Shown here in pieces: positions 2,612 through 16,608 of a stretch of 16,608 nucleotides of DNA (its first letter is position 1; each line of letters begins with the position of its first letter). Location of the stretch: IMG/VR virus record IMGVR_UViG_3300037473_000239, positions 1 through 16,608 of that record. One strand, given 5' to 3'. Below the pieces are notes generated by a model. It saw only the letters and a list, made by a program, of their open reading frames with translations, was not told the DNA's origin and did no database searches. This DNA comes from a virus. Made by a program: the position numbers and the translations under genes.

Positions 2612-2626
2612 GAGGACCGAGGCCCT

Positions 2627-3061: not shown

Positions 3062-3092
3062 CCGGCCGAAACCGTAAAGAAGGGAGGCGGTC

Positions 3093-3677: not shown

Positions 3678-4087
3678 ACCTCGACGACGTGGCCGAGGAA
3701 ATGCGGAACGCTCTGGCCACCATCGACGGCCTACGGGTCGCGCAGTGGGGCGCAGGCAGCGTCTCGGCTCCCGCCGGGCTGGTCGGGCTTCCGGTGCGCA
3801 TCGACTACGACGACACCTACGTACGCGGCTCCGACCGGTACCCCGACCTGGAGGTCTACGTCCTGGTCGACAAGCCCCAGGACCGGTCGACGCGCAAGCG
3901 CCTCGCCCAGTACGCGGCGGGTGCCGGGGACAAGAGCGTCAAGCAGGCCATCGAGTCGTACGAGTTCACCAGCTGCGACAAGGACTCCGTGCGGGTCGTC
4001 TCGTGCGAGTTCGAAGAGGTCAAGTACGCCGGGATTCCTTACCTGGCAGCGATTTTCCACGTCGACCTGACCGGCGACGGCGAGTAG
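3674..4087 (+). CDS. Neck or tail-completion protein (head-tail stopper or tail-terminator position); function not recognised
   Basis: Coupled to the upstream gene by an ATGA start/stop overlap; the track's alternative start is GTG at 3665. 137 aa, located between the adaptor and major tail protein genes. Confidence 0.55.
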   Translation: MNLDDVAEEMRNALATIDGLRVAQWGAGSVSAPAGLVGLPVRIDYDDTYVRGSDRYPDLEVYVLVDKPQDRSTRKRLAQYAAGAGDKSVKQAIESYEFTSCDKDSVRVVSCEFEEVKYAGIPYLAAIFHVDLTGDGE

Positions 4088-4097
4088 GGAGGCAACC

Positions 4098-4502
4098 ATG
4101 TCCAAGCCGCACGGCAAGAACACGGTCATCACGGTGGCCACCAAGGACATCAGTCCGTACACGAAGACCTCGACGTACACCCGGTCGGCGAAGAGCCACG
4201 ACACCACCGGCTACGGCGTCGACGACGAGGACTACGAGGCTGGCCTCAAGGGCGGCAAGTTCTCCATGGGCGGCACCTACGACAACACCGCCTCGGTCGG
4301 CCCGCGCAACGCCCTGCACGGGCTCGTCGGCACGAAGGTCGCCGTGGTCCGCAAGACCGAGGGCACCGGCACCGGCAAGCCGCAGGACACCTTCTCGATG
4401 GTCCTGGAGAGCTACGTCGAGACCAACCCGCACGACGACATGATCTCGTGGACCGCCGAGGGCACCATCGCTGGCGGCGTCACCACGACGGCTCAGAGCT
4501 GA
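4098..4502 (+). CDS. Major tail (tube) protein
   Basis: 134 aa with a strong RBS (GGGAGGCAACC-ATG). It lies immediately upstream of the chaperone pair. The composition is beta-rich and Thr/Gly-rich, as in small siphovirus tube proteins. Confidence 0.7.
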   Translation: MSKPHGKNTVITVATKDISPYTKTSTYTRSAKSHDTTGYGVDDEDYEAGLKGGKFSMGGTYDNTASVGPRNALHGLVGTKVAVVRKTEGTGTGKPQDTFSMVLESYVETNPHDDMISWTAEGTIAGGVTTTAQS

Positions 4503-4509
4503 GTCGGCG

Positions 4510-4827
4510 ATGGCGAACCTGACGCGCGAGCAGATCCTGGCCCGCAAGACCGGCAAGGGGAAGGCGACGCTGCCCGACGGCACGACCGTGGCGATCCGGG
4601 CGCTGACCCGCGACGAGGTCCTAGAGAGCCAGGAAATGGACAGCCTGGCCGATCGGGACAACTTCATCATCGCGACCGGCGTGACCGACCCGAAGCTGAC
4701 CGTCGAAGACGTGGCCGCGTGGGCGGCCTCGGGCGACGCGGGCGACCTCACCACCGTTACCGACGCGATCGCCGAGCTGTCCCGGCTGAAGCAGGGTGCC
4801 GGGAAAAGCAGCGTGGCTGGAGCTTGA
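4510..4827 (+). CDS. Tail assembly chaperone (gpG-like, zero-frame product)
   Basis: 105 aa and acidic, immediately downstream of the major tail protein. Its 3' end overlaps a second ORF in another frame at a GGGAAAA run. Confidence 0.65.
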   Translation: MANLTREQILARKTGKGKATLPDGTTVAIRALTRDEVLESQEMDSLADRDNFIIATGVTDPKLTVEDVAAWAASGDAGDLTTVTDAIAELSRLKQGAGKSSVAGA

Positions 4828-5005
4828 CGACGATCCGGAACTGGAGTTCGAGTTCCGGCTGGCGAAGGACCTCGGCATGACCGTCCGCCGACTGCGGACG
4901 GAGATGGACAACAGCGAGTTCATCGTCTGGTCCCGCTACTACATGCGGCGAGACGCGGATAAGGAGCTGGCCGCGCAGCAGGCCGCGCAGAGGGCAGGAG
5001 GGTAG
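4802..5005 (+). CDS. gpT-like extension of the tail assembly chaperone. The predicted fusion product spans 4510..~4806 joined to ~4808..5005 through a net +1 frameshift.
   Basis: The frame-2 ORF overlaps the end of 4510-4827 and there is no convincing RBS for its GTG at 4796. The text LAKDLGMTVRRLRTEMDNSEFIVWSRYY resembles the T portions of actinophage chaperones. A slippery GGGAAAA lies at 4801-4807. Confidence 0.5.
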   Translation, partial: GKAAWLELDDDPELEFEFRLAKDLGMTVRRLRTEMDNSEFIVWSRYYMRRDADKELAAQQAAQRAGG

Positions 5006-5008
5006 TAG

Positions 5009-5434
5009 ATGGCCGAGATCGTGCAGATCACGGGCATTCGCGAGTTGAACGCTGCCCTGAAGCGGGTCGACGCCGAGCTTCCCAAGGGTGTGCGTGTCGC
5101 GCTGAACGAGGGCGTCGAGAAGTTGGCCGGCTATATCCGACCGCAGATCCCGACAGACACCGGCGCGGCCCGGCAGAGCGTCAAGCCCGGATCGACCCGT
5201 ACGGCCGCCAGGCTGCGCGTCGGCGGCGCGAAGGCCCGTTACTACCCCTGGCTCGACTTCGGTGGCCAGGGACGCCGCAAGGGCCGTCCCGCGCACCGCC
5301 CGTTCATCTCCGAAGGCCGCTACGTCTACCCGACGCTGCGCAAGCGGAAGCCCGAACTGATCGACGACCTAAACAACGCCATCGCGGGCGTGATCCGTGG
5401 TGCTGGGCTGGAGGTGACCACCGATGGCGGGTAA
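5009..5434 (+). CDS. HK97 gp10-family neck or tail-completion protein
   Basis: The pattern ITGIRELNAALKRV...IPTDTGAARQSV...YYPWLDFGG matches the gp10 family as I recall it (G..el...L, P.DTG, Y...efG). The ATG lies 4 nt after the stop of the T frame. Confidence 0.6.
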   Translation: MAEIVQITGIRELNAALKRVDAELPKGVRVALNEGVEKLAGYIRPQIPTDTGAARQSVKPGSTRTAARLRVGGAKARYYPWLDFGGQGRRKGRPAHRPFISEGRYVYPTLRKRKPELIDDLNNAIAGVIRGAGLEVTTDGG

Positions 5435-6389
5435 CAACACCCTCACCGTGACGATCGCCGGGGAGTCCAAGGGAGCCGAGGACGCGTTCGCCCGCGTCGG
5501 CACCAGCGCCAAGGACATGGACACGAAGGTCCGTGACACCCACGACAGCTTCGACAAGGTCGGCGAGAAGGCCGACGAGGTCGACACCAAGGCGATGGGG
5601 TTCCGCGACACCCTCACCGGTATCCAGGACTCCACCAAGGGCATCAAGGACATCGCCTCCGGCAACTTCGGGTTCGAGTCGCTGCTGACCCTGGGTGCCG
5701 GTATCGGCGACCTGGGCTCCGGCATGTTCAACTTCCTGGTGCCCGCGTTCGGGGCCGTCACCACGGCGGTCCAGGGCATGAACCTTGCGTTCCTGTCGTC
5801 GCCGATCTTCTGGATCATCGCCGCGATCGTGGTCCTCATCGGGATCATCGTGCTGATCGCCACCAAGACCGATTGGTTCCAACGGGCGTGGAAGGCGTCG
5901 TGGGGCTGGATCAAGGACGCCGCAGGCGCGGCCTGGGACTGGATCAAGACCAAGGCGGTCGCCGTCTGGGACTGGCTGAAGAGCATCCCCGGCATGCTGA
6001 AGACGGCCTTCGGGAAGGTCGCCGACATCCTCATCGCGCCGTACAAGTTCGCGTTCAACACGATCGCGAAGCTGTGGAACGCCACCATCGGCAGCCTGTC
6101 GTGGACCGTGCCCGGCTGGATCCCGGGCATCGGCGGCAACACGATCAGCGTGCCGAAGCTGCCCACCTTCCACTCCGGCGGCACCGTGCCCGGCTTTCCC
6201 GGGCAGGCCGTACCCATCATGGCCATGGCGGGCGAGCAGGTGTCGGCCAACGGGAGCGGCGGGCGCGGCGGCACGGTCTACGTGCGTGGTGATGGCCTGG
6301 TCGACTACCTGATTGAGGCGATTGCGGGTGAGGTTCGTCGTCGCGGCGGTGACCCTGGTGCTCTGGGTATCGGTGGTTCCGGTGCCTAA
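5424..6389 (+). CDS. Tape measure protein (unusually short, 321 aa)
   Basis: RBS GGAGGTG lies 8 nt upstream of the ATG. The N-terminus is helical and is followed by two hydrophobic segments (FNFLVPAFGAVTTAV, PIFWIIAAIVVLIGIIVLIA). Trp repeats recur every 11 aa (SWGWIK/AWDWIK/VWDWLK), and a Gly-rich C-terminus contains PTFHSGGTVPG. The gene sits upstream of the tail-tip genes. Confidence 0.8.
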   Translation: MAGNNTLTVTIAGESKGAEDAFARVGTSAKDMDTKVRDTHDSFDKVGEKADEVDTKAMGFRDTLTGIQDSTKGIKDIASGNFGFESLLTLGAGIGDLGSGMFNFLVPAFGAVTTAVQGMNLAFLSSPIFWIIAAIVVLIGIIVLIATKTDWFQRAWKASWGWIKDAAGAAWDWIKTKAVAVWDWLKSIPGMLKTAFGKVADILIAPYKFAFNTIAKLWNATIGSLSWTVPGWIPGIGGNTISVPKLPTFHSGGTVPGFPGQAVPIMAMAGEQVSANGSGGRGGTVYVRGDGLVDYLIEAIAGEVRRRGGDPGALGIGGSGA

Positions 6390-9000
6390 GCAGGATCTCG
6401 CCCTTGAGCTGTACTACTCCGGGTCGTGGCATGACGTCGCCACCGACGACAAGGTGTTCGCAGACGCCCCGGTGACGATCCGGCGCGGCCTGGGTGACGA
6501 GTCCGGCGGCTGGCCGCGACCCGCGACCATCACCGCCCGCCTCGACAACGCCAGCGACAAGTACCGCACCTCTAATCCCGAGTCGCCGCTGTACGGGCTG
6601 GCCGGGCGGAACACGCCGATGCGGGCCTCTGTCGGTGGCACCGTGCGGGGCATCGTCGAGGCGTCCAGTTGGTCGGCCGACCAGACCCCCGACTTCCGCG
6701 CCTCGCCTCGCCGGGGGAAGGCGTGGGTCGATGTGAACGGCGGCGGTGTGCTCCAGCGCATCGGCCAGTGGAACCAGCCGCTCCGGTCGGCGCTCTACCG
6801 GTACGTCGACAAGAGCGGCGTGACCCCGGCCGAGTGGTGGCCGATGGAGGACGCCTCCGGCTCGGCGACGGCCGCCTCCGCAGCGGGCGGCTCGCCGCTC
6901 ACCCCGGTCACGGCCGTGCGGTACACGCTGCCCGACGGAAACCCGCTGCCGCCGGGCGGAGCGCCGAAGTTCGCCGACGGCGCGGGCATCACCGGGTCGG
7001 ACAAGCTGCCGAGCTTCCAGGGCGGCGGCACGCTGTCCGCGCCCGTGCGCAGCGCCAGCTTCAACGGGTACGCCATCGATTGGGTAATGCAGTTCGCTGC
7101 GGGTACCGACGACGGCGGCACGAGTTCGGCGGACGTGCTCCGCTGGCGCGAGTCCGGCACCTACGTGATGTTCACCGTCAACGTGGTCAAGAACAACATC
7201 ACCGTGGTCCACTCCAACGCGGCCGACGCTGTGACCCTAACCGGGACCGGCTCGGCGTCAGCGACGTTCGACGTCTACGACGGTGCACCGCACCACTTCC
7301 GCTACCAGGTGCGCCAGAGCGGCGGCAACTACCTGGCCCAGCTGCTCATTGACAGCTCTGTGGTTGCCACCGCCGACAACTTCACCCCGGGCATGACCGG
7401 CACCGTCGGACGGCCCACACAGATCGAATGGAACCCGGGGGAGCAGCGCGGCGACTACATGCCGACGGCTGCCGGGCACCTGATCGTCTGGGCCTCCGGG
7501 CAGCTCGGCGGACAGCCGGCCGTTTTCTACGCCCTCAACGGGTACGCAGGCGAGCGCACCGCCTACCGGTTTTCCCGCCTCCTCACCGAGGAGGGCATCG
7601 CCTGCTACGTCAGTGCCAGTTTCGACGACTCGATGCCGATGGGACCGCAGCGGCCCGACTCCCTGCCCAACCTGGTCAAGGAGTGCCTCACCACCGAGGA
7701 CGGCCTGGTCTATGACCACGGCACCGATCTGCGCCCGCTCTTCCTGTGCCGGGCCGACCGGTACAACCAGACGCCGAAGCTCGACCTCGCCCCGACGGAC
7801 CTGACGGTCCTGCCGAAGGAGGTCAACGACGACAAGCTGGCCGGGAACGTGGTCACCGCCTCGCAGCGCGACGGCGGGGACTCGACGGCCCGGGATGACA
7901 CCGGCCCGCTCGGCACCCAGCCGCCCCCGGACGGGGCCGGTGAGGAGAAGCGGACCGTCAACGTCAACCTCAACGACCCGGACGACGACCTGCCGCAGGT
8001 GGCCAACTGGTGGCTCAAGAGGGGGACCGTCGACCTCCCCCGGTTCCCGCAACTCACGATCGACCTGAACGCCAACCCGGGTCTGGTCGCCGATGTGGAG
8101 GCGATCAAGCCAGGCGACGTGATCACGCTGACCGGGTTCCGGGAGAACGTCATCCGGCTGATCGTGCTCGGCTGGACCGAGACGATCGGCACCCATACCC
8201 GCACCATCGTCTTCACCTGCGTGCCCGACCAGCAGTTCCAGGTGGGCGTCTGGGACTCCACGTCGAGCCGGTGGGATTCCAGTTCCACGATGCTGGTGGG
8301 CTCGCTGACCACCAGCGGCACAGCGGTGAAGATCGGCACCACGTCCCCCAATGAGTCGTGGTCCACCGCCGGTGTGCCGTACGACGTGATGGTGTCCGGC
8401 GAGCGCATGACCGTGACGGCGATGGGCGCGACCACGACCGACGCGACGCTGAGCGCGAACGGATTCGAGAGTGGCGTCGGTGGCTGGCAGAGCAGCAACG
8501 GCACGCTGACGCAGTCCAGCACGTTCGCCAATTCCGGCAGCTTCAGCGGCCTGCTCACCGTTACCGGCTCTCCCGTCGAGGCCAACATCCGCAAGGCGTT
8601 CGCGAGTTGCCCGCGCGTGGTGCCCGGCCAGGAGTACACGCTGAGCACGTTCGTGCGTTCCGTCGCGACGATCACCGCAGCGTGTCACATCGACTGGCTG
8701 GACGAGAACGGCGTGTTCCTGTCGCGCAACGGCACCAGTGGCTCGCTGTCGTCCGGCGCGTGGGCTTCTCGGGTGGTCACCGCGACGGCACCGGCAGGGG
8801 CCGCCTACGCCCAGTACGGGGCGACGATCAGCGGCTCCCCGGTGGCCGGAACTCTGCTCTACGCCGACGACCTGGTATTGACGGCTACGACGATCCGCTA
8901 CCAGACAGCAACGCTCACGCGCAGCGTGAACGGCATCGTCAAGGCGCAGACCCCCGGCACCCCTGTCCACGTAGCTACCCCCGGGAGGTGGGCGCTGTGA
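6382..9000 (+). CDS. Minor tail / tail-tip protein: distal tail protein (Dit)-like N-terminus and a C-terminal CBM_4_9-like carbohydrate-binding domain. Probable receptor-binding protein.
   Basis: One continuous ORF. The start is uncertain: candidates are GTG 6328, 6373 and 6382, while the track's TTG 6313 would overlap the tape measure gene by 77 nt. N-terminal ATITARLDNASDKYRTSNPESPLYGLAGRNTPMR resembles Dit-type tail proteins. The C-terminal ~144 aa (nt ~8455-8886) reads NGFESGVGGWQSSNGTL...YADDLVL, typical of the CBM4/9 beta-sandwich. Confidence 0.8.
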   Translation: MPKQDLALELYYSGSWHDVATDDKVFADAPVTIRRGLGDESGGWPRPATITARLDNASDKYRTSNPESPLYGLAGRNTPMRASVGGTVRGIVEASSWSADQTPDFRASPRRGKAWVDVNGGGVLQRIGQWNQPLRSALYRYVDKSGVTPAEWWPMEDASGSATAASAAGGSPLTPVTAVRYTLPDGNPLPPGGAPKFADGAGITGSDKLPSFQGGGTLSAPVRSASFNGYAIDWVMQFAAGTDDGGTSSADVLRWRESGTYVMFTVNVVKNNITVVHSNAADAVTLTGTGSASATFDVYDGAPHHFRYQVRQSGGNYLAQLLIDSSVVATADNFTPGMTGTVGRPTQIEWNPGEQRGDYMPTAAGHLIVWASGQLGGQPAVFYALNGYAGERTAYRFSRLLTEEGIACYVSASFDDSMPMGPQRPDSLPNLVKECLTTEDGLVYDHGTDLRPLFLCRADRYNQTPKLDLAPTDLTVLPKEVNDDKLAGNVVTASQRDGGDSTARDDTGPLGTQPPPDGAGEEKRTVNVNLNDPDDDLPQVANWWLKRGTVDLPRFPQLTIDLNANPGLVADVEAIKPGDVITLTGFRENVIRLIVLGWTETIGTHTRTIVFTCVPDQQFQVGVWDSTSSRWDSSSTMLVGSLTTSGTAVKIGTTSPNESWSTAGVPYDVMVSGERMTVTAMGATTTDATLSANGFESGVGGWQSSNGTLTQSSTFANSGSFSGLLTVTGSPVEANIRKAFASCPRVVPGQEYTLSTFVRSVATITAACHIDWLDENGVFLSRNGTSGSLSSGAWASRVVTATAPAGAAYAQYGATISGSPVAGTLLYADDLVLTATTIRYQTATLTRSVNGIVKAQTPGTPVHVATPGRWAL

Positions 9001-9473
9001 CCGTCCTCGCTGGTAACCCGACGTACGCCTCGGACGTGAACGCCGACGTCGCCAAGGCATCGCTCGGCCGGATCGCCCAGACCGACGCCACCGCGAACGC
9101 GGCGGCCACCAGCGGTACCACTGAGCTGGCCGTGGACCAGGTGACGATCAGCGCGGTCAACGGCTACCGCTACAAGATCACGTGGAACATGTCGTTCACC
9201 GGAACCGTCGTCGCTGACACCTTCCTGTTCCGGATCCGGCTGGGTTCCGGCACCGGCGGTAGCCAGTTGGTCTACACGTGCCCGGCAATCCCGTTCAACT
9301 CCGGGAACCAGGCAACCGTGCGCCAGGTGATGGTTACCGAATGGACCGCCAGTTCCACCGCGTCGCAGACCTTCACCGCCACGGTGGTGCGCAACTCCGG
9401 CACGGGTACCGCCACGGTGACCGCCGCGAGTTCAGCCCTGCGCACGCTCTCCGTCGACTACGTCTCCGGCTGA
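8997..9473 (+). CDS. Minor tail protein (hypothetical)
   Basis: GTGA start/stop overlap with the upstream gene, with GGGAGGT 8 nt upstream. 158 aa, Thr/Ser/Ala-rich and beta-like. It is the last gene of the tail module. Confidence 0.6.
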   Translation: MTVLAGNPTYASDVNADVAKASLGRIAQTDATANAAATSGTTELAVDQVTISAVNGYRYKITWNMSFTGTVVADTFLFRIRLGSGTGGSQLVYTCPAIPFNSGNQATVRQVMVTEWTASSTASQTFTATVVRNSGTGTATVTAASSALRTLSVDYVSG

Positions 9474-9482
9474 GGGGCCACC

Positions 9483-9806
9483 ATGAACAAGCTCACCTGG
9501 CCCGCTGTGGGTCTCATCGCGGTCCTCGGCGGGATCGCGGTCCTGCTGGCCACCCTGGCGCACTGGGACGCCGGGGCGATCCTCGGCGTCCTCGGCATCC
9601 TCGGCGGCATCGGCGGCGGTGCGGCGGTGGCGGGGGGAGTGGCCGGGAAGGTGGAGGAGGTCCACGCCCAGACAGCGGCGCAGACCTCCCAGCTCGACAC
9701 CATCGAGCGGCAGACGAACGGCATGTCGACCGCCGAGAAGCAGGACATCGCCGAGCGGGCGGCAGCCGCCGCCATCGCCGCGATGCACCGCGAGGAAGGC
9801 CGCTAG
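9483..9806 (+). CDS. Holin-like small membrane protein (2 predicted TM helices, charged C-terminal tail)
   Basis: 107 aa. TM1 is WPAVGLIAVLGGIAVLLATLA and TM2 is AILGVLGILGGIGGGAAVAGGVAG, followed by a polar, charged coil. The RBS is GAGGGG and the gene sits after the tail genes. No similarity search was performed. Confidence 0.5.
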   Translation: MNKLTWPAVGLIAVLGGIAVLLATLAHWDAGAILGVLGILGGIGGGAAVAGGVAGKVEEVHAQTAAQTSQLDTIERQTNGMSTAEKQDIAERAAAAAIAAMHREEGR

Positions 9807-9991
9807 CGGTCGCCCTGCGGCGAGTACCGCACCCAGCCTGGACCCGAACCGCTGTCCACCCAGACGTCCGAGCCCTCGCCAGCCTCCACAAGCGCCCTCA
9901 TGTAGGCGAAGCCCAGGGACAGATCCTCGTCGTCCTCGCGTATGTCGAGCTGTGGTTCTCCGTCGTCCGGCTGCGTCAAGGTCCACTTCAT
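9803..9991 (-). CDS. Small, highly acidic hypothetical protein (62 aa) in a moron-like position
   Basis: Minus-strand ORF. The internal ATG at 9991 is preceded by GGAG-N6, whereas the upstream ATG at 10018 lacks an RBS. The sequence is MKWTLTQPDDGEPQLDIREDDEDLSL.... Its stop overlaps the holin-like gene's stop in the tetranucleotide CTAG (9803-9806). Confidence 0.5.
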   Translation of the reverse strand: MKWTLTQPDDGEPQLDIREDDEDLSLGFAYMRALVEAGEGSDVWVDSGSGPGWVRYSPQGDR

Positions 9992-10118
9992 GCCCGGCTC
10001 CAAACTGCAAATGTGCATCCTGTGTTGACATGGAGGTTAGTCCGTATCAACCCCTTAGCCCATACCCCTTAGACCGTTTGCGTCATATCAAGATCACAGG
10101 CTGTCTACGTTCTGGGGT

Positions 10119-10328
10119 ATGGCCAAGGCCGAGGAGCTGTACCCGATGGGCGCGGAGGAGATCCGCCAGCGCCTCGGCGTCAGCGTGCAGCGGGCGTACA
10201 TCATCGTGGGCCGCAAAGACTTCCCCGACCCGTGGCGGCAACTCGCACGCGGCAAGGTGTGGCGCTCCACCGACGTCGAAGCCTGGATCAAGGAGCACCG
10301 GCCCGAACTGGCCGAAGGCAACTCCTAA
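10119..10328 (+). CDS. Helix-turn-helix DNA-binding protein, excisionase/MerR-like family; possible recombination directionality factor or regulator
   Basis: 69 aa. The text GAEEIRQRLGVSVQRAYIIVGRKDFPDPWRQLARGKVWRSTDVEAWI fits the excisionase-type wHTH pattern (HTH, then a basic wing, then W...V..W). The gene is immediately upstream of the integrase. Confidence 0.7.
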   Translation: MAKAEELYPMGAEEIRQRLGVSVQRAYIIVGRKDFPDPWRQLARGKVWRSTDVEAWIKEHRPELAEGNS

Positions 10329-10386
10329 GGCTGTCTTGGCGCGACCTTTGTCAGCTCGAAAGTGACGCTGTGACATACTTACCGGC

Positions 10387-11772
10387 ATGACTGCGACGTG
10401 CGCGATCTACTGCCGCATCTCCAAGGACCGCACCGGTGCTGGCCTGGGCGTCGAACGCCAGGAGAACGAATGCCGCGAGCTGGCCGCCCGGCTCGGCCTG
10501 ACCGTGACTGCGGTCTACACGGACAACGACCTCTCGGCCTACTCCGGCAAGACCCGGCCCGGCTACCGCCTCCTGCTGGCCGAGATCCAGGCCGGGCGGG
10601 TCAGTGCCGTGCTCGCCTGGCACACCGACCGCATCCACCGCTCCCCGGCCGAGCTTGAGGAGTACATCGCGGCCTGCGAACAGCGAGGGGTCCCGACGCA
10701 CACCGTCAAGGGCGGAACGCTCGACCTGACCAGCGCCAGCGGCCGGATGACCGCCCGCATCGTCGGTGCGGTCGCCCGCCAGGAGGTCGAGCACCAGATC
10801 GAACGGCAGCAGTCCAAGAAGCGGGAGACCGCCGCCGCAGGCAAATGGGGAGGCGGGCGACGCCCGTACGGCTACGAGGCCGACGGCGTCACCGTCCGGC
10901 CCGACGAGGCCCGCATTGTAGCCGAGGCCACCGACAAGATCCTGCTCGGAACAAGCCTCCGGTCGTACACGGCCAAGCTGAAGGAGGCCGGACAGCTCAC
11001 GTCGACCGGACGGCAGTGGGTGCCGACCGAGCTGAAGAAGGTGCTCATCCGGCCCCGCAACGCCGGTCTGCGCGAACACCGGGGCCAGATCATCGGCAAG
11101 GCCGAGTGGGAACCCATCGTCGCCGAGGAGAAGTGGAGGGCGGTCCGGGCGATGATGGCCGACCCGGCCCGGCGCACCACGACCGGCTCAGCGCGCAAGT
11201 GGCTGCTCTCCGGGATCGCGACGTGCGGCATCTGCGGGTCGCCCGTGCGCGCGGTCACCATGCACACCACCCGGGCAGGCGTGGCCTCGTACGCCTGCGT
11301 GGCGTCGAAATGCGTGGTGCGCAACGCGGCCGAGATGGACCGGTACGTCGAGCTGGTGACCGTCGAGCGGCTGAAGCGGCCCGACACCCTCGACCTGATG
11401 CGTCCGGCGTCACCTGCGATCGACCTGCCCGCGCTGATCGCCGAGGAGAACAACCTGCGGGAACGCCTCGACACCCTGGCCGACGACCTCGACCTTGACG
11501 AGCGGACCCTTGCCCGGCGGTCTCAGCGGCTGCGTGAGCGCCTGGAGGAGATCGGTGTGCACAAGGCGGAGGCCGGGCGCGGATCGCCGCTCTCCGGCGT
11601 TGTGGACGCACCCGACGTGCAGGCCGCATGGAACCGCCTCGACCTCGACCGCAAACGCGCCATCATCAACCTCCTGATGACGATCCGGGTCATGCCCGCC
11701 CGGAAAGGCCGCCCGGCAGGCTGGCAGCCCGGTGCGTCGTACTTCGACCCGGCCACCATCGACATCACGTAG
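10387..11772 (+). CDS. int: Large serine recombinase (phage integrase)
   Basis: The N-terminal resolvase domain carries the catalytic serine context AIYCRISKDR and LAWHTDRIHRS. A recombinase domain follows (GGGRRPYGYE). A zinc ribbon (CGICGSPV...YACVASKC) and a C-terminal coiled coil (NNLRERLDTLADDLD...RLRERLEEI) complete the protein. 461 aa. Confidence 0.92.
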   Translation: MTATCAIYCRISKDRTGAGLGVERQENECRELAARLGLTVTAVYTDNDLSAYSGKTRPGYRLLLAEIQAGRVSAVLAWHTDRIHRSPAELEEYIAACEQRGVPTHTVKGGTLDLTSASGRMTARIVGAVARQEVEHQIERQQSKKRETAAAGKWGGGRRPYGYEADGVTVRPDEARIVAEATDKILLGTSLRSYTAKLKEAGQLTSTGRQWVPTELKKVLIRPRNAGLREHRGQIIGKAEWEPIVAEEKWRAVRAMMADPARRTTTGSARKWLLSGIATCGICGSPVRAVTMHTTRAGVASYACVASKCVVRNAAEMDRYVELVTVERLKRPDTLDLMRPASPAIDLPALIAEENNLRERLDTLADDLDLDERTLARRSQRLRERLEEIGVHKAEAGRGSPLSGVVDAPDVQAAWNRLDLDRKRAIINLLMTIRVMPARKGRPAGWQPGASYFDPATIDIT

Positions 11773-11800
11773 CCATTAGTCAGTTCGGAATAGACAAAGG

Positions 11801-11826
11801 GGCCCACATAGATGTGGGCCTTTTTG
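11801..11826 (+). terminator. Rho-independent terminator downstream of int
   Basis: The arm GGCCCACAT (11801-11809) pairs perfectly with ATGTGGGCC (11812-11820) and is followed by TTTTT (11821-11825). The terminator lies 29 nt after the int stop. Confidence 0.7.
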
Positions 11827-11849
11827 ATGTGCTTGTGGTGCACGTCACA

Positions 11850-11935
11850 GCGAATTGTCAATTGTTAGTTGACGGGCCGTATCACGTTGTCGGGTTAACG
11901 TTCTGGTGTTCGCGGAGGAGGATCCAGCGAACACC
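11850..11935. promoter_or_regulatory. Regulatory region between int and the early operon; candidate promoter/operator and/or attP
   Basis: The stretch is locally AT-richer. It holds an inverted repeat GTCAA-N7-TTGAC (11857-11873) and the pairing TTGTCA (11855-11860)-19 nt-TATCAC (11880-11885). There is also a perfect 9 bp inverted repeat, GGTGTTCGC (11905-11913) with GCGAACACC (11927-11935), around a GGAGGAGGATCCA spacer. Confidence 0.3.
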
Positions 11936-11970
11936 CACCACAAATCTCCGCCCGGAGAAATGGACGCACC

Positions 11971-12180
11971 GTGCGCACCAAAGTCGACCCTGACGTTGTC
12001 AAAGTCAGGGCCAAGCTCGGCACCGCTGTTCGAGAAAAGAACGCCGACCTTGAAGCTCAGTACCGCCAGGAATTGCACGACCTGAACATCATCGTTGCGG
12101 CCAAGCGGGTCGCAGCCCGACTCCCCGAACTGACTCCGGAGAAGCGCGAGCAGATCCGCGCGTTGCTCGGCGGTGCCTAA
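11971..12180 (+). CDS. Hypothetical small protein (69 aa), first gene of the early operon
   Basis: GTG start with GGAG 13 nt upstream. GC3 is moderately high. Its stop overlaps the next ATG as TAATG. No motif was recognised. Confidence 0.5.
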   Translation: MRTKVDPDVVKVRAKLGTAVREKNADLEAQYRQELHDLNIIVAAKRVAARLPELTPEKREQIRALLGGA

Positions 12181-12827
12181 TGGCGCGGGATGGGGGTTCC
12201 CGGCCTGCGGGTAACAGGCCGGGAACCGATCCCAGCGTAGACCGCTTCATCATGGTGCCGGTCGACGTCATGCACTACGTCGCCAAGGGACTCAGCCCAA
12301 CGGCCGCATGGCTCTACGTGGTGCTGCTCAGCCACCACAACCGCAAGCGCGAGGACAACGACGTGTGGCCGTCCCGCAAGTCGCTGGCCGAGGCTTTGGG
12401 GCTGAAGAAGGTCGACAACGTCGACAGGTACCTGCGCGAGCTGAGCGACTCGGGGCTTATCAAGTCTCGTCGCCGTGCGGGAGGCGTAAAAGGCGACGGC
12501 GTCGCGAATCAGACCAGCGTGTACACGCTCCTGCTAACCGTTAAGCCCGAAAGGCCCAAAGCGCAGGAGACGGCCCCCCCACCCCCTTCTGCGGGGGCAC
12601 CCCACCCCCATCAATGGGGTTACCCCCACCCCCATGAATCGGGTAACCCCACCCCCGCAGAAGGGACACGAACTAGAGGAAGTGAACTAGACGAATCTGA
12701 ACTAGATGAAATGAACAACAGTTGGCCCCCCCTCGCTTCGCTCGGCACCCCCCAAGGGGTGCACGACGACGAAACCGAAGTTGTCGAAGCCGAAATCGGC
12801 AATTGGGCTGACCCGTGGGCCAGCTAG
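12180..12827 (+). CDS. Winged-helix DNA-binding protein; putative replication initiator or replisome organiser
   Basis: The N-terminal text FIMVPVDVMHYV...LSPTAAWLYVVLLSHHN...WPSRKSLAEALGLKKVDNVDRYLRELSDSGLI is typical of phage and plasmid wHTH initiator N-domains. A Pro/His-rich linker and an acidic C-terminus follow. The linker coding DNA carries the iteron-like array. An alternative start is ATG 12252. Confidence 0.6.
   Translation: MARDGGSRPAGNRPGTDPSVDRFIMVPVDVMHYVAKGLSPTAAWLYVVLLSHHNRKREDNDVWPSRKSLAEALGLKKVDNVDRYLRELSDSGLIKSRRRAGGVKGDGVANQTSVYTLLLTVKPERPKAQETAPPPPSAGAPHPHQWGYPHPHESGNPTPAEGTRTRGSELDESELDEMNNSWPPLASLGTPQGVHDDETEVVEAEIGNWADPWAS
12574..12720. repeat. Putative origin of replication inside the initiator gene: four ~23-24 bp iteron-like units followed by an AT-rich block with three GAACTAGA repeats
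   Basis: CCCCACCCCC occurs at 12577, 12600, 12624 and 12647. Each copy is followed by N6-7 and a G-run, giving internal dyads (CCCCC-ttctgc-GGGGG, CCCCC-atcaat-GGGG, CCCCC-atgaatc-GGG, CCCCC-gcagaa-GGG). Units 2 and 3 are 21/24 identical, and units 1 and 4 form a 14 bp inverted repeat (CCCTTCTGCGGGGG / CCCCCGCAGAAGGG). GAACTAGA occurs at 12670, 12684 and 12699 in the most AT-rich coding stretch. Confidence 0.55.
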
Positions 12828-12884
12828 CTCCTCGGCGAGAACTTCAAAAGCGCACCGACAACGAGACCCGGAAGGGCACCAGCC

Positions 12885-13289
12885 ATGAGTAATCCGTTCA
12901 AGCCTGGCCACCAGGTGAACCTTCACCACGGTCATGCCATCACCGGCGACTTCTCGCCGACGTACCAGACCTGGCGGTCGATGCGCGCCCGCTGCCGCCC
13001 CACCGGCAAGTACGGGCTGCGAGGCATCACCGTCTGCGACAGGTGGGCCGACTTCGGGGCATTCCTGGCCGACATGGGCGAACGCCCGCCCGGAAAGACC
13101 ATCGACCGCATTAACAACGACGGCAACTACACGCCGGACAACTGCCGGTGGGCCACGCCGAAAGAGCAGGCAGCCAACCGTCGCCGCCCTGGCCCGCCTT
13201 CCGCAGAAACGCGGGCGCGTATCTCACTCAGGCTCCGCGCAAGGAACGCCCAGGCCCGACTCATCGCCGCCCTGACCGCAGCGGCATAA
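12885..13289 (+). CDS. HNH_3/AP2-like DNA-binding protein (degenerate HNH-related); function uncertain
   Basis: 134 aa. The pattern YQTWRSMRARC...GITVCDRWADFGAFLADMGERPPGKTIDRINNDGNYTPDNCRWATPKEQAAN recurs in phage proteins usually annotated as HNH-like. The first His position is Arg here, so the protein may be non-catalytic. Confidence 0.5.
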   Translation: MSNPFKPGHQVNLHHGHAITGDFSPTYQTWRSMRARCRPTGKYGLRGITVCDRWADFGAFLADMGERPPGKTIDRINNDGNYTPDNCRWATPKEQAANRRRPGPPSAETRARISLRLRARNAQARLIAALTAAA

Positions 13290-13325
13290 CCACCCACGCA
13301 ACAACCGAGAGAAGGAGCGCCAGCC

Positions 13326-13559
13326 GTGAAGCACATCAACTTCAACCTCCCCTTCGGCGCGCGGACCGACATGCGCGTCAAGCAGGACAGCGCCCTCAGC
13401 CGCGCCCACGACATCGCCGCAGCAGCCGAAAAGCTCAGCCTCGAAGTCGCCGACCTCGGAGACCGCGTCACCACCATCACCGCATCACTCAAGGCGCACC
13501 ACGTCGCCATCGCCGACCTGGTGCAAATGCTCACCGACGAAGCCGACGACCAGGAATAA
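13326..13559 (+). CDS. Hypothetical 77 aa helical protein, paralog A, with C-terminal LTDEADDQE
   Basis: GTG start preceded by GAAGGAG-N8. The sequence is predicted to be helical or coiled-coil. Its 3' 30 nt are identical to the 3' end of the next gene. Confidence 0.55.
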   Translation: MKHINFNLPFGARTDMRVKQDSALSRAHDIAAAAEKLSLEVADLGDRVTTITASLKAHHVAIADLVQMLTDEADDQE

Positions 13560-13569
13560 GGGAGAGATC

Positions 13570-13803
13570 ATGCGCACCGAAACCCGCACCGCTCTGGAGT
13601 TGCACAAGGAGCACCTGACTGGCTGCGTCGAACGGCTCCGGACCGAACTGGAGAAGGACACGGCGCAGTGGACTGATCGCCTCGCGAGGCGGACCGGAGA
13701 TTTGGCCGATGCTGAGGCTCAGTTGGCTGCAATCACCGCCGACCTCGATGAGCCTTCGACCGTCGTCACCACGCTCACCGACGAAGCCGACGACCAGGAA
13801 TAG
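13570..13803 (+). CDS. Hypothetical 77 aa helical protein, paralog B, with C-terminal LTDEADDQE
   Basis: ATG preceded by GGGAGAG. It is the same length as paralog A and has the same last 9 residues. The body is coiled-coil-like (LRTELEKDTAQWTDRLARRTGDLADAEAQLAAI). Confidence 0.55.
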   Translation: MRTETRTALELHKEHLTGCVERLRTELEKDTAQWTDRLARRTGDLADAEAQLAAITADLDEPSTVVTTLTDEADDQE

Positions 13804-13808
13804 CCGCC

Positions 13809-14075
13809 ATGAGCAAGGCATGGGCCGGAGGCAGCGACACACGCTGGCGTCGCTTCCGGCTCACCATCCTGGAGAGAGACCGATGGCTCTGCACACTCAA
13901 GCTGGACGTCTGCACCACAACAGCCCAGCACGTACACCACGTCATCCCGCTGGCCAGGGGCGGAGCCAAGTACGACCCGGGCAACTGCACCAGCGCATGC
14001 GCAGCGTGCAACCTCAAGCTCGGCGACAGAGCACCGACACCACAACCCGAACCACGACCCACATCCTCATGGTGA
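13809..14075 (+). CDS. HNH endonuclease (packaging-associated type)
   Basis: 88 aa. The beta-beta-alpha-metal motif has paired cysteines: WLCTLKLDVC...HVHHVIPLARGG...DPGNCTSACAACN. Confidence 0.85.
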   Translation: MSKAWAGGSDTRWRRFRLTILERDRWLCTLKLDVCTTTAQHVHHVIPLARGGAKYDPGNCTSACAACNLKLGDRAPTPQPEPRPTSSW

Positions 14076-14161
14076 TCGACTGGGCACCCACGTTCCTGCC
14101 CGCACTCATCCTCTGCGCCCTCGGATTCCGATGGGGCACGGAATTCGTCGTGACCTTCTGA
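14069..14161 (+). CDS. Possible 30 aa hydrophobic micro-ORF (very tentative)
   Basis: The ATG overlaps the HNH stop (ATGGTGA). It encodes MVIDWAPTFLPALILCALGFRWGTEFVVTF, which would form one TM-like helix. There is no independent support. Confidence 0.2.
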   Translation: MVIDWAPTFLPALILCALGFRWGTEFVVTF

Positions 14162-14228
14162 AAAGTTGACGGGCTGTGGCCCACCGAACACCCGCTGATC
14201 TGTTTTTTTGTGTGCGAGTTTCCCCAGC

Positions 14229-15743
14229 TCAGGCGGCCGGACCGAGCTTCTTGATTCCGCGGGCCAGGTGCACTGCGGCGGCCATGCCGTACACGGTGTC
14301 AATCGGGGCCTTGCCGCGCCGCGCGAATCGCCATCCATCGCCCTGTGGTAGCTGCTGGGCCTGCTTTACCTGCTCGTTCATGAGCGGGTCGTGGGCGTGG
14401 CGGAACTGCCCGGCGGCAACCTGCTCTTCTAGGCCCATGCAGGCGCGTACGACGTCCTCGGCGCGGATGGGTTCGAGGAGGACGTTGCGGATTCGCTTGG
14501 TGGCGAATTCGTCGGCTACGGACTGAGCCGGCCCACCGGCGATCCAGCCGACCTTGCGTGGCTTGATGCGCTCGACCCATCCGGGCAGGTCACGGCGCAG
14601 CTCCTTCCGGCATTCGTAGCCGTTCCACGCTGCCACGACCTCACCCCAGACGAGGTCGCCGACCTTGACGGCGGCCAGGAGGCTTGCGTGGGAGTAGTCC
14701 TGCGCAACCTCGAAGGTCAGCGCCACCTCGCGGCGGTGATTGGCCAGGTCGATGAAGTCGGCCCGCTGGACGCCGCAGGCGTTCCAGTCCTCCAGCCGGA
14801 TCGCCGCCTTCAGCAGATCGACGCGCTGGCACATGATTTCGATCTTGAACCGGGCCAGGGTCTCGCCCCCGGCGGCTATCGCGACCCTGGCTTGCCCGAG
14901 GAGCGCATCCAGTTCGATCCCGTCCCCCAGGCTCGGGTTGGCCTGTGCGAGCGCGTCCACGTCGTCAGGGTCGGTCCCGGTGGGCGCGCTCCACGCGGCC
15001 AGGAAGACTCGCTGATCCCCCTCGCCGGTGAGGATGGTTGCATGCGCCGCGTCGTATTCCTCGTGCAGCACAACGGATTCGGCGTCGCCCTCGTTCGAGA
15101 TGCACACCAGAAGGCCGTCGGGTACCGCGTTCTGGGCGGGCACGATCGCATCCCACGTGTCGCGGTTCCGGTGCTCGCGCAACTCGTCCAGGAGCGCCCG
15201 GTCCACCGTGTCACCGCGCCCGGCCCGGCGGGTCGGGGCCGAGAAGCGGTAGTGGGAGCCGTAGTCGTTCCAGAAGTCCTCTTCGCCGATCTGTAGCGCG
15301 GTGTGTCGGGACGGCAGGGCGGCGGCCAGCACCTCGGTCCGCTCGGCCATCTCGACGACCTTCTTCCATGACCGCTTGGCGGCGGCCCGGTCGGTGGAGG
15401 TCGCCACGATTTCCGTGACCCGCTCGACGAACATCCAGTAGAGGATCAGCAGCCGGGTAAAGAGGGTCTTCCCGTTCTGCCGGGCGATCAGGATGATCGC
15501 CTTCCGGTAGCGGGGGGACCCGTCTGGGAACAGCTCGCCCAGCCGGATGGCCAGGCGGTGCTGCCATTCGCGCAGCGGCCAGCCGATCAGCGTGCAGAAG
15601 TCGGAGAAGTGGTAGCCCCAGGAAGACTCAGGGTTGGTCCAGAGGTCGTCACGTAGCGGTGGCGTGACCGTCGTCGGCTCGACGCTGCCCAGCACGGGCG
15701 CGCCGGGCAGCAAGCTGGTCCAGAGGGTTTCCGGCTGGGACAT
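14229..15743 (-). CDS. terL: Terminase large subunit (Terminase_1 / HK97-like family)
   Basis: 504 aa on the minus strand. It has Walker A (IARQNGKT), Walker B (RALLDELRE) and a C-terminal nuclease-like region. A strong RBS (GGAGGTGAAGG) precedes the ATG at 15743. Confidence 0.92.
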   Translation of the reverse strand: MSQPETLWTSLLPGAPVLGSVEPTTVTPPLRDDLWTNPESSWGYHFSDFCTLIGWPLREWQHRLAIRLGELFPDGSPRYRKAIILIARQNGKTLFTRLLILYWMFVERVTEIVATSTDRAAAKRSWKKVVEMAERTEVLAAALPSRHTALQIGEEDFWNDYGSHYRFSAPTRRAGRGDTVDRALLDELREHRNRDTWDAIVPAQNAVPDGLLVCISNEGDAESVVLHEEYDAAHATILTGEGDQRVFLAAWSAPTGTDPDDVDALAQANPSLGDGIELDALLGQARVAIAAGGETLARFKIEIMCQRVDLLKAAIRLEDWNACGVQRADFIDLANHRREVALTFEVAQDYSHASLLAAVKVGDLVWGEVVAAWNGYECRKELRRDLPGWVERIKPRKVGWIAGGPAQSVADEFATKRIRNVLLEPIRAEDVVRACMGLEEQVAAGQFRHAHDPLMNEQVKQAQQLPQGDGWRFARRGKAPIDTVYGMAAAVHLARGIKKLGPAA

Positions 15744-15972
15744 CCTTCACCTCCCCGCGATGCGCGGCGGCCCGCGACCGGGGACTCATCTGCAACGCCT
15801 CCAGGGCGGCGAGGAGCGCTCCGGCGGTCCGGTAGTCCGCCTCGTCCTCGTCGATGCGCAGCGCGAGCGTCAGGGCAAGCTCAGCGGTCGCGACGTCGCT
15901 CGGAGCCGGTGGCTTCGCGGTTAGGGCAGCACGCACCGCCTTCTCCAGTGACCCCGCTCGCCGATACGTCAT
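15649..15972 (-). CDS. terS: Terminase small subunit (putative)
   Basis: 107 aa immediately upstream of terL on the minus strand. The text ELALTLALRIDEDE...LLAALEALQMSPRSR...NPLDQLAARRARAG resembles actinophage small terminases. The ATG at 15972 is preferred over 15999 because the 9 extra codons have poor GC3 and lie in the palindrome. The gene overlaps terL by 95 nt. Confidence 0.65.
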   Translation of the reverse strand: MTYRRAGSLEKAVRAALTAKPPAPSDVATAELALTLALRIDEDEADYRTAGALLAALEALQMSPRSRAAAHRGEVKDVPAGNPLDQLAARRARAGQRRADDGHATAT

Positions 15973-15985
15973 GAATGCAGCGTAC

Positions 15986-16001
15986 CTATGTACGTACATA
16001 G
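15986..16001. promoter_or_regulatory. Perfect 16 bp palindrome CTATGTACGTACATAG in the divergent terS/portal spacer; candidate operator
   Basis: The sequence equals its own reverse complement. It is flanked by TANNNT hexamers: AGCGTA at 15979-15984 (TACGCT on the minus strand, 6 nt before the terS ATG) and TAGCAT at 16007-16012 (7 nt before the portal ATG). Confidence 0.5.
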
Positions 16002-16019
16002 TGAGGTAGCATCGGCACT

Positions 16020-16608
16020 ATGAGGTGGCCGTGGTCGCGTCGGGCTGAGCAGCCCGCGAACACGTCGCTGTCCATCGCCGACCCCGCGCTGGCCGCCCTG
16101 TTCTCCCCTGGCTGCGTCGTAGACCTGGCCGGGGTAGAGGTGGGGGAGCAGTCCGCTCTCGGCCTCAGCGCCCTTTTCCGGGGCGTCTCGCTGATCTCCG
16201 GCACCCTCGCCTCGCTGCCGCTGCGGTCGCTGAACCTCGACGATTCCGGTGCGCCGCAACAGGTTCCGTCGGTTTTCGACGACCCGGACGGGCCGGACGG
16301 CCAGACGCCGTACGAGTGGAAAGAGACCCTGTTCGCGCACCTGGTGATTCACGGCCGGGCCGGAGCGCTGAGGGTCCGCAACGAGGCTGGCGGCATGGCC
16401 CGTCTGGCGCTGGTGCACCCGCTGTGCTTCTACCCGGAGCAGCCGACGCAGGAGGAGTACCGGACGGGCAGGCTGCCTGCGGGCGGGCTGTGGTTCCGGG
16501 TCAGCTTCGCCGACGGCACGCAGCGGAAGCTCGACGCTACCGACTTCTGGTACGTGCCCGCCCTGGCGATGACGCCCGGGTTCGGGCAGGGCCTGATGCA
16601 GCTTGCTC
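16020..16608 (+). CDS. Phage portal protein, N-terminal part. It is 3'-partial in the window and continues at nt 1 (128 in non-redundant numbering).
   Basis: ATG at 16020, with the frame open to the window end. The text EQSALGLSALFRGVSLISGTLASLPLRS is typical of portal N-termini. The last 127 nt duplicate the window start. Confidence 0.85.
   Translation, partial: MRWPWSRRAEQPANTSLSIADPALAALFSPGCVVDLAGVEVGEQSALGLSALFRGVSLISGTLASLPLRSLNLDDSGAPQQVPSVFDDPDGPDGQTPYEWKETLFAHLVIHGRAGALRVRNEAGGMARLALVHPLCFYPEQPTQEEYRTGRLPAGGLWFRVSFADGTQRKLDATDFWYVPALAMTPGFGQGLMQLA
16482..16608. repeat. 127 bp terminal overlap identical to 1-127 (circularisation signature of the contig)
   Basis: A base-by-base comparison of both ends shows they are identical. 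The repeat lies inside the portal reading frame and preserves the frame. Confidence 0.95.

Follow-up and report, generated by a model that had tools for sequence, protein, structure and literature searches.

We propose that the genome in IMG/VR virus record IMGVR_UViG_3300037473_000239, analyzed here over all of its 16,608 nucleotides (positions 1 to 16,608, hereafter the window), has its vegetative replication origin at positions 12577-12720, inside the gene that encodes its own origin-binding protein, Rep (12180-12827, 215 amino acids, on the plus strand, as are the features within it). The layout of this segment, in which four iterons are followed by an AT-rich block, makes it quite probable that the 16.5-kb element replicates by a theta-type mechanism from an origin of the lambda type. 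Binding of Rep, melting of the block, recruitment of a helicase and origin activity are all inferred from features of the sequence. Bases 1-127 of the window are identical to bases 16482-16608, and the record therefore represents a circularly closed genome of 16,481 bp, with an overall guanine-plus-cytosine (GC) content of 67.6%. Iterons and an AT-rich block inside an initiator gene are the textbook arrangement of phage lambda; the design is a known one, of which the window provides a new instance. In the literature that we searched, coverage of which was incomplete, we found no prior description of an in-gene origin for this initiator family or of its conserved GAACTAGA block.

The four iterons share the 10-mer CCCCACCCCC, which starts at 12577, 12600, 12624 and 12647 (spacing 23/24/23 bp) and occurs nowhere else in the window, even when one mismatch is allowed. 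An original prediction, made from the sequence alone, had described four units 23-24 bp apart, each with an internal C5-N6-7-G3-5 dyad, and this description was confirmed: the dyads are CCCCC-TTCTGC-GGGGG, CCCCC-ATCAAT-GGGG, CCCCC-ATGAATC-GGG and CCCCC-GCAGAA-GGG. Iteron 1 (12577-12597) therefore reads CCCCACCCCC-TTCTGC-GGGGG, iteron 2 (12600-12619) CCCCACCCCC-ATCAAT-GGGG, iteron 3 (12624-12643) CCCCACCCCC-ATGAATC-GGG and iteron 4 (12647-12665) CCCCACCCCC-GCAGAA-GGG. No tandem repeat in the window scores higher than this array (Tandem Repeats Finder: 12577-12656, period 23/24, 3.4 copies, score 88), and a search of the genome with up to three mismatches returned no further iteron copies except a likely chance match at 1633. 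Units 2 and 3 are highly similar, as had been noted, with 20 of 24 positions identical in the register used here rather than the 21 of 24 first claimed. The center of iteron 4 is the reverse complement of the center of iteron 1, and the 14-nt inverted repeat predicted for these two units is perfect (12584-12597/12652-12665); a second inverted repeat of 11 nt (12615-12625/12641-12651) involves units 2 and 3. The predicted single-strand fold of 12570-12672 has a free energy of -28.4 kcal/mol (z = -5.2). Iteron 4 continues directly into ACAC and the AT-rich block, and the junction GGGACACGAACTAGA is common to the window and three of the relatives described below (L001, L006 and L007). A scan for promoters and terminators over 11600-13000 found nothing within the array, scans of the window for Rfam families and tRNAs found nothing, and a search for DnaA boxes (TTSTCCACA, up to one mismatch) gave only two matches (7941 and 11556), fewer than expected by chance and neither of them near the array. 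The complementary strand does carry the eight G-tracts that had been pointed out, but no canonical G-quadruplex motif was found with loops of up to 12 nt, the tract pairs on the minus strand being 13-14 nt apart. A G-quadruplex as a conserved part of the mechanism was dropped, given that G-runs are missing or nearly so from the arrays of several relatives (0-1 in that of L004) and that most relatives lack the motif.

Several results indicate that the array is repeated as DNA rather than as peptide. The 10-mer starts at offsets 397, 420, 444 and 467 from the ATG, and is thus read in three frames: as PPPP in iteron 1 (frame +1), as PHPH in iterons 2 and 3 (frame 0) and as PTP in iteron 4 (frame +2). 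These are therefore DNA repeats, beyond what selection on the peptide or duplication of a peptide would produce; in the relatives, too, units are commonly 21, 22 or 23 bp apart. Four copies of the 10-mer within 100 bp were not seen in any of 300 genomes simulated under a first-order Markov model. To this we added a null model in which the peptide was held fixed and codons were redrawn from the genome's own usage. Under this fixed-protein null, at least four copies of the 10-mer appeared in 62 of 3000 draws, and at least seven CCCC-N5-7-GGG dyads in 12 of 3000; in 1 of 1000 draws, an inverted repeat reached 14 nt or more.

The block that adjoins the array (12666-12720), a putative DNA-unwinding element, is rich in A and T and in purines. 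It consists of ACAC followed by three copies of GAACTAGA and encodes TRTRGSELDESELDEMNN. The copies start at 12670, 12684 and 12699, at a spacing of 14-15 bp, where 0.14 are expected, and none of 200 shuffles reached three. That an exceptionally AT-rich stretch with three repeats lies immediately downstream of the iterons had been predicted, and the genome indeed reaches its lowest GC content at 12659-12730 when scanned in windows of 40, 50 and 60 bp (0.35-0.40 vs 0.676 overall), with a value of 0.38 for 12666-12720. The low GC content runs against the codon usage of the genome. The peptide EGTRTRGSELDESELDEMNN is encoded at a GC content of 0.417 vs 0.647 expected, and none of 20000 recodings was as low. 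Rare codons are frequent in the block, including AGA (never used in 12 other genes), CTA (2%), ACT (1.4%) and ACA (1.7%), and CGA, TCT, AGT and GAA are used as well. In all eight sequences of our first alignment (the window and seven relatives), GC at third codon positions was 0.19-0.31 in the block vs 0.76-0.88 in the part encoding the winged helix. When the window and 11 relatives were compared, glutamate was encoded by GAA at 51 of 51 positions in the block vs 64 of 162 elsewhere in the same genes, and leucine by CTA at 20 of 20 vs 18 of 231. The relatives among these 12 genes were found by protein similarity, and the counts are hence free of codon ascertainment. A blastn search of the block against cultured phages and plasmids gave only chance-level matches (E of 2 or more).

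The same layout is found throughout the relatives of Rep. Protein searches returned 21 homologues with 33-58% identity, and DNA could be retrieved for 11 of them, from phage-like and AICE-like (actinomycete integrative and conjugative element) settings. All 11 carry, at the same place in the alignment, 3-4 direct repeats that are 22-24 bp apart, each with an internal dyad, and in all of them the array ends directly at a GAACTAGA-type block. None has the freely diverged, repeat-less linker that the original prediction had named as evidence against an in-gene origin. The repeat sequence itself is specific to the lineage and often out of frame between units: it is GTAGTCCCCAAACAGGGAC in L001 and L006, CTATGCGCCAGAGCGCACAGC in L004, GCTATCCCCCACAGCGGACA in L005, L008 and L009, GGGGTAGTGCCCGCCAGCGCACCA in L037 and L038, GATACCCCCGCACCGGGGTATC in L040 and TACCCCCCACAGGGGG in L039. 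To describe how the repeats diverge, we compared nucleotide identity between the window and its four closest relatives (L001, L004, L006 and L007). Identity was mostly 0.7-0.96 over 12058-12400, a stretch that reaches from the tail of the preceding gene into the DNA-binding domain as far as its first helices. It fell to mostly 0.28-0.55 (up to 0.66) over 12402-12640, which covers the recognition helix, the wing and the iterons and is the most diverged segment, and returned to 0.66-0.89 over the AT-rich block. The recognition helix and wing thus diverge jointly with the repeats, between conserved flanks, and behave with them as one specificity cassette. In lambdoid phages the iterons and the N-terminal domain of O are likewise type-specific while the AT-rich part is shared, which is the same pattern as in the divergence profile of the window.

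The family to which Rep belongs is large. A profile search of the full library gave 2,561 cluster representatives with E ≤1e-3, and the stricter limit of E ≤1e-10 left 222; in at least 37 of 158 long matches, an ELEEVELEE-type motif comes after a repetitive linker. When the family alignment was used for protein-pattern scans of IMG/VR and of GTDB genomes, no relatives were confirmed. A scan of metagenomes, IMG/VR and genomes with the DNA pattern GAACTAGAnnAAGn1-2GAACTAGACGAA gave 25 loci, most of which were rejected as unrelated low-GC or acidic-repeat coding sequences; the relevant ones, L011, L016, L023 and L032, were left out of the codon statistics because they had been selected by the pattern itself.

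Among PHROG profiles, the top match of Rep was PHROG 270, 'replication initiation protein' (1.8e-14), and the O-like PHROGs 391, 345 and 678 were matched as well; in Pfam, HTH_36 was matched over residues 37-94 (2.3e-7). With E values up to 1, the Pfam scan returned only HTH_36, HTH_Crp_2, RP-C and LexA_DNA_bind, for Rep and likewise across the 21 family members, while an NCBIfam search gave nothing meaningful and a profile search of PDB sequences nothing below E 0.6. AlphaFold2, supplied with a 21-sequence alignment, predicted a confident winged-helix DNA-binding domain at residues 25-120 (12252-12539), with a predicted local distance difference test (pLDDT) score of 85-95 over residues 30-100, helices at 28-35, 40-52, 66-73 and 80-90, and strands at 94-99 and 112-117; the codons for the recognition helix and the wing lie at about 12402-12539. 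Modelled Rep consists of this one winged-helix domain and has no nuclease-like domain. From residue 121 to the end the protein is predicted to be disordered, and the iterons and the AT-rich block thus encode a disordered segment, in agreement with the earlier suggestion that a linker of this kind could tolerate cis-acting constraints on its DNA. The C-terminal tail (…DDETEVVEAEIGNWADPWAS; 12721-12827, pLDDT below 55) is disordered and acidic, and its acidic run and D-P/Y-W motif recur in relatives; it may contact a host factor.

In the mechanism that we envisage, the winged-helix domain of Rep, probably as a dimer, would bind the four dyad-symmetric iterons (C-run, N6-7, G-run), whose 23-24-bp spacing amounts to a little over two helical turns. 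The complex of Rep and iterons would strain the adjoining 55-bp purine- and AT-rich block with its three GAACTAGA copies and lead to melting, and the acidic tail of Rep, the melted repeats or both could recruit the host helicase and primosome. Recruitment from the host is postulated because the genome has no gene for a helicase, a loader or a primase: rep is the sole replication gene identified, and no helicase, primase, loader or polymerase genes were found elsewhere in the genome. With the origin located where the gene encodes a disordered linker, the constraint that a cis-acting site places on the DNA would cost the protein little.

Comparison with phage lambda reveals a number of likenesses in detail. 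The lambda origin lies in the middle of gene O, its iterons are 19-bp imperfect inverted repeats in which G-tracts are contacted, and the AT-rich region is needed for unwinding (PMC7466680). The annotated lambda iterons (ATCCCTCAAAACGAGGGA, ATCCCCTAAAACGAGGGA, ATCCCTCAAATTGGGGGA and ATCCCTCAAAACAGGGGG) comprise four 18-bp dyads spaced 20/24/23 bp and span residues 117-145 of the 299-residue O protein, and the array described here spans residues 133-163 of 215; both come immediately behind an N-terminal DNA-binding domain. In lambda as in the window, four iterons of about 18-20 bp form imperfect inverted repeats whose arms carry a C-run and a G-run, the last iteron continues into ACAC and a purine-rich, A-rich block on the coding strand (ACACAAAAGACAC… in lambda, with 26% GC and 67% purine; ACACGAACTAGA… here, with 38% GC and 69% purine), and the origin, here putative, occupies the linker-coding middle of the initiator gene. 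The analogy with an origin inside O, which the original prediction had drawn, is thus upheld by iterons at the equivalent place in O, with similar spacing and dyads and an A-rich block that starts with ACAC. One relative, L001, has an iteron (AGTCCCCAAACAGGGAC) that resembles the lambda iteron ATCCCTCAAAACAGGGGG. Rep and the N-terminal domain of lambda O have phrog_345 and phrog_678 as matches in common, over the same N-terminal part of these profiles, at 1e-6 and 2.2e-5 for Rep and 5e-17 and 1.7e-35 for lambda O. There are also clear differences. Unlike O, Rep lacks a C-terminal P-binding domain and ends in the disordered acidic tail of 35 residues; no P-like loader gene is present, the downstream gene encoding an HNH endonuclease instead; the AT-rich block is made of exact 8-mer repeats (GAACTAGA) rather than A-tracts; and the module, whose host here would be a high-GC actinobacterium, also occurs in AICE-like conjugative elements. 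We take the array to work like ori-lambda and, plausibly, to be distantly related to it, and do not count Rep as a member of the Phage_rep_O family.

Other replicons offer further points of comparison. The iteron-type theta replicons of RK2 (TrfA), F (RepE) and pPS10 (RepA) likewise combine a winged-helix Rep with direct iterons of about 22 bp and an adjacent AT-rich element with short repeats, and the window has the layout of such an origin, with three or more direct repeats of about 20 bp that lie roughly two helical turns apart, an adjoining AT-rich element and a cis-encoded winged-helix Rep. In those plasmids, however, the origin lies outside rep and usually includes DnaA boxes, whereas here it is in the gene with no DnaA box nearby, and their Rep proteins have two winged-helix domains where the model of Rep has one. 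In RK2 and F, Rep recognizes the repeats of the unwinding element in single-stranded form and in a sequence-specific manner, and none of the repeats is dispensable (PMC4081077). The GAACTAGA copies are reminiscent of the 13-mers repeated in plasmid unwinding elements, a resemblance that may serve as a lead. More speculatively, and on balance doubtfully, the GAACTAGA repeats might form a sequence-specific module, bound as single-stranded DNA by Rep or used as a loading site for the host helicase or primosome, that initiators otherwise far diverged, from actinobacterial phages, AICE-like conjugative elements and plasmids, have in common at the nucleotide level. If the lambda-like iteron consensus (TCCC-AAAC-GGGA) and the ACAC junction are considered as well, the cassette of initiator N-domain, iterons and A-rich block would then be one ancient unit across Proteobacteria and Actinobacteria, present here in a minimal form without C-terminal domain or loader.

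The best structural matches of the Rep model in a Foldseek search of the PDB were the iteron-binding N-terminal domains of staphylococcal RepA proteins, including a Rep-DNA complex (4pql, 4pt7 and 5kbj; E 3e-4 to 7e-3, template modeling (TM) score on the target 0.51-0.55), which makes the RepA_N-family plasmid initiators of Firmicutes (pSK41, pTZ2162) and the PLE satellite a further system for comparison. The likeness is modest, with a TM score of 0.53 on the target for the match at E 3e-4, and ordinary winged-helix repressors of the CodY and ArsR types were nearly equal. Rep had no Pfam match to RepA_N (PF06970) with E up to 1, and lacks the host-specific C-terminal domain that RepA_N initiators have. 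The origin of RepA_N plasmids reportedly lies within repA, as Weaver and co-workers are said to have described in 2009. Cultured homologues are found in the Arthrobacter phages Bolt007 (gp44) and Bumble (gp39), whose 'RepA-like replication initiator' proteins have a homologous winged helix (37-40% identity over about 80 residues) and the same top PHROG, 270. These genes, found by tblastn, have the same in-gene layout, with three CCCCCCCCCTCAAAACCGCGCA units at 22/24 bp followed by CGAACTTAGATCTAGTTTTAACTTAGAAGAA, and their records annotate no origin. Their AT-rich block is related but not identical to that of the window (AACTTAGA vs GAACTAGA), and their proteins are longer, at about 320 residues, with a C-terminal domain; in Bolt007 the next gene encodes a helicase loader. 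Another initiator that binds repeats inside its own coding sequence is RepAM of the actinobacterial mobile element pMEA300, where the repeats could form a hairpin (PMC2440964). RepAM belongs to DUF3631/PF12307 (PMC3218068), which neither Rep nor any of the 21 family members matched with E up to 1. The sites of RepAM also differ, in that repeats of 8 bp, located at the gene's 3' end, are arranged as a hairpin with a putative nick site, and no layout of iterons and AT-rich block has been described for them.

Some of our results weigh against a lambda-like origin, or limit what can be drawn from the others. The sequence link between Rep and lambda O is weak and only transitive, through the shared phrog_345 and phrog_678; Pfam Phage_rep_O (PF04492) was not matched by Rep with E up to 1, and an hhalign comparison of Rep with the single lambda O sequence found nothing (probability 0.09). 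Autocorrelation at lags of 22-25 was only marginal under the fixed-protein null (223 of 5000 draws), and was therefore replaced by the reading-frame argument and the statistics on the 10-mer, the dyads and the inverted repeat. The high identity of the AT-rich block among the closest relatives may in part reflect recent shared ancestry of the flanks, and in comparison with the more distant clade its overall identity is no higher than 0.62-0.67, so that the argument at the nucleotide level rests on codon choice and not on overall identity. Finally, the peptide ELDExELDE is itself conserved, and constraint on the protein and constraint on the DNA are not fully separable on the sequences compared.

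Under an explanation without any cis function, the region would merely encode a low-complexity linker rich in proline, histidine and glycine, its repeats being products of slippage or duplication and its rare codons incidental, as a translational pause between domains would be. The linker is indeed disordered, its acidic peptide is conserved as protein and one of the recoding statistics is marginal; nevertheless, selection on a peptide repeat could neither produce nor maintain a 10-mer read in three frames or the 22-23-bp spacings common in relatives. An internal dyad is present in the units of every lineage despite their different sequences, the codons of the block are uniform (GAA and CTA without exception), and the repeats co-diverge with the recognition helix and wing, all of which makes this explanation highly improbable. 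Somewhat easier to entertain, although still unlikely, is the possibility that Rep does bind to the array, which would then serve as an operator or copy-control site, involved in incompatibility, handcuffing or autoregulation, with the true origin located elsewhere, such as in AT-poorer intergenic sequence near 9.9-10.1 kb, 11.7-12.0 kb or 15.96 kb. Plasmid iterons serve in both initiation and control, a regulatory role has also been proposed for the in-gene sites of RepAM (PMC2440964), and GC content drops to 0.43-0.47 in 40-100-bp windows at other spots (about 11770-11830, 10000 and 15963). However, a control site would account poorly for the way in which the array is always joined to the part of the genome richest in A and T, whose AT content is kept high in 12 of 12 genes despite codon usage; Rep sites joined to an unwinding element are the signature of an origin rather than of an operator, and apart from the presumed chance match at 1633 the genome holds no other iteron copies.

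Two further rivals concern the kind of cis-acting site. Nested inverted repeats could extrude a hairpin or cruciform with a nick site and act as the double-strand origin of a rolling-circle replicon, as has been suggested for RepAM of the pMEA300 type. The single strand of 12570-12672 does fold well, relatives of Rep occur in AICE-like elements, and RepAM provides a precedent for binding to hairpin-capable repeats in its own gene. On the other hand, a rolling-circle initiator is hard to reconcile with a Rep that consists of a winged helix and a disordered tail without a nuclease-like domain, and that matches neither RepAM/DUF3631 nor any Pfam rolling-circle Rep family with E up to 1. Most relatives, moreover, have plain direct repeats with a small internal dyad instead of one large hairpin, and the adjoining AT-rich block is typical of theta origins, so that we regard a rolling-circle origin as very improbable. 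We attach still less probability to a site of another kind, namely the attP of the serine integrase or a packaging (cos or pac) site. The integrase gene lies only about 800 bp upstream and the array has an overall dyad character, but four direct repeats with an AT-rich block are the wrong anatomy for a serine-integrase attP or for cos, and the terminase and HNH genes are elsewhere (12885-15743). The layout also travels with the rep gene beside tyrosine integrases, beside serine integrases, or, in Bolt007, with none.

A theta-type origin inside rep would give a small uncultured actinobacterial phage-like genome a concrete candidate for its site of initiation. The interpretation extends to an uncurated family of initiators, with about 220 cluster representatives at E ≤1e-10, that are labelled 'helix-turn-helix protein', 'MocR regulator' or 'transcriptional repressor'. 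The combination of a winged-helix open reading frame (ORF), 3-4 dyad repeats at 22-24 bp and a GAACTAGA-type block in rare codons provides a signature with which to search for origins in actinobacteriophages, AICEs and Streptomyces-type plasmids. As a self-contained replicon of about 650 bp with swappable specificity cassettes, the module could serve for compatible vectors in Actinobacteria. It is also a clean case of a cis-acting site that overrides codon usage within a gene, which is relevant to gene prediction and to analyses of selection. Conceptually, it extends the classic design of lambda and plasmids and overturns nothing.

Further observations were made on the rep gene and its surroundings. 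The gene call of the Joint Genome Institute (JGI) starts at Met25 (12252) and yields 191 residues, with P0001 as the identical 191-residue product. A perfect hairpin with a 13-bp stem (GGTTCCCGGCCTG-cgggtaa-CAGGCCGGGAACC) lies at 12196-12228 on the plus strand, 16 nt into the rep ORF, and the JGI start falls after it. The hairpin is kept in L001, L004, L006 and L007, with one pair changed from U:A to G:C, and among pairs with the same residue, the codon is also the same in a fraction of 0.865 over residues 1-24, compared with 0.571 in the winged-helix part. The hairpin could act as terminator or attenuator for the preceding gene of 69 amino acids, or could control translation of rep, rather than form part of the origin. 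Right after the rep stop codon, CAAAAGCGCACCGACAA (12845-12861) is non-coding yet kept even in the distant relatives L005 and L008, and its core AAAGCGCA recurs directly upstream of the iterons (12558-12565); a role as promoter or operator of the HNH and packaging genes that follow, or as a second origin-flanking site, is conceivable.

Several relatives have settings of their own. L037 (1-15790) and L038 (1-11361) contain initiator homologues with in-gene iterons and AT-rich block in an AICE-like setting, next to genes for an integrase, an HTH_17 excisionase-like protein, a 687-residue FtsK/SpoIIIE-type transfer protein and DUF2637, and without virion genes. The Rep classes listed for AICEs are RepSA, RepAM and Prim-Pol, and the type found in L037 and L038 is not among them (PMC3218068). 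In L016 (reverse strand, 406-1100) and L032 (reverse strand, 3-680), which represent a more distant lineage and come from two independent metagenomes, the winged-helix ORF ends at or within an array of four GCCGCAnnGGTGCGGCCC copies, and a GAACTAGAAGAAGCGGAACTAGACGAA block and '…PW…' tail run on in another frame; this could be a split gene, a frameshift or a partly intergenic origin. L011 (1430-2245) is a remote homologue on a contig with 55% GC that has three CCCCTTCACnGnTTGAAGGGG units at 21 bp and an in-frame GAACTAGAAGAAGTTGAACTAGACGAA block, with excisionase-like and terminase-like genes downstream; since it was the DNA pattern that retrieved it, its block is subject to ascertainment bias.

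The remainder of the genome is that of a small phage-like element. The portal gene extends from about 16010 to 774 across the circle junction, and there are genes for a ClpP-type head protease and an HK97-type capsid protein, for a tape-measure-like protein and an 895-residue protein of the tail region, and for an excisionase-like protein. The large serine integrase is encoded at 10387-11772. A megablast search of 11500-13500 against cultured phages gave no match, and a tblastn search with the capsid protein found no close phage among them. The nearest cultured homologues of rep are in Arthrobacter phages and in plasmids of Streptomyces, Rhodococcus and Amycolatopsis; these homologues, together with the GC content and the AICE-like neighborhoods of relatives, point to a high-GC actinobacterium as the host. 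GC skew was dropped as an indicator of the origin because it is confounded by the location of nearly all genes on one strand. The large terminase gene (14229-15743, minus strand) runs counter to the portal gene and to practically every other gene and is divergent from the portal gene, which is unusual for a small siphovirus-like genome. The same arrangement occurs in L001, where a minus-strand gene of 492 amino acids follows the HNH gene, and the gap between terminase and portal genes (about 15744-16010) is AT-poorer. Two separate HNH endonuclease genes, at 12885-13289 and 13809-14075 between rep and terminase, are present within the 16.5-kb genome. Upstream of the second of these, a perfect 30-bp direct repeat, GCTCACCGACGAAGCCGACGACCAGGAATA, occurs at 13529-13558 and 13773-13802, 244 bp apart, its copies lying at the 3' ends of two small ORFs (13326-13559 and 13570-13803), and a third copy that is 70% identical is located at 13433.

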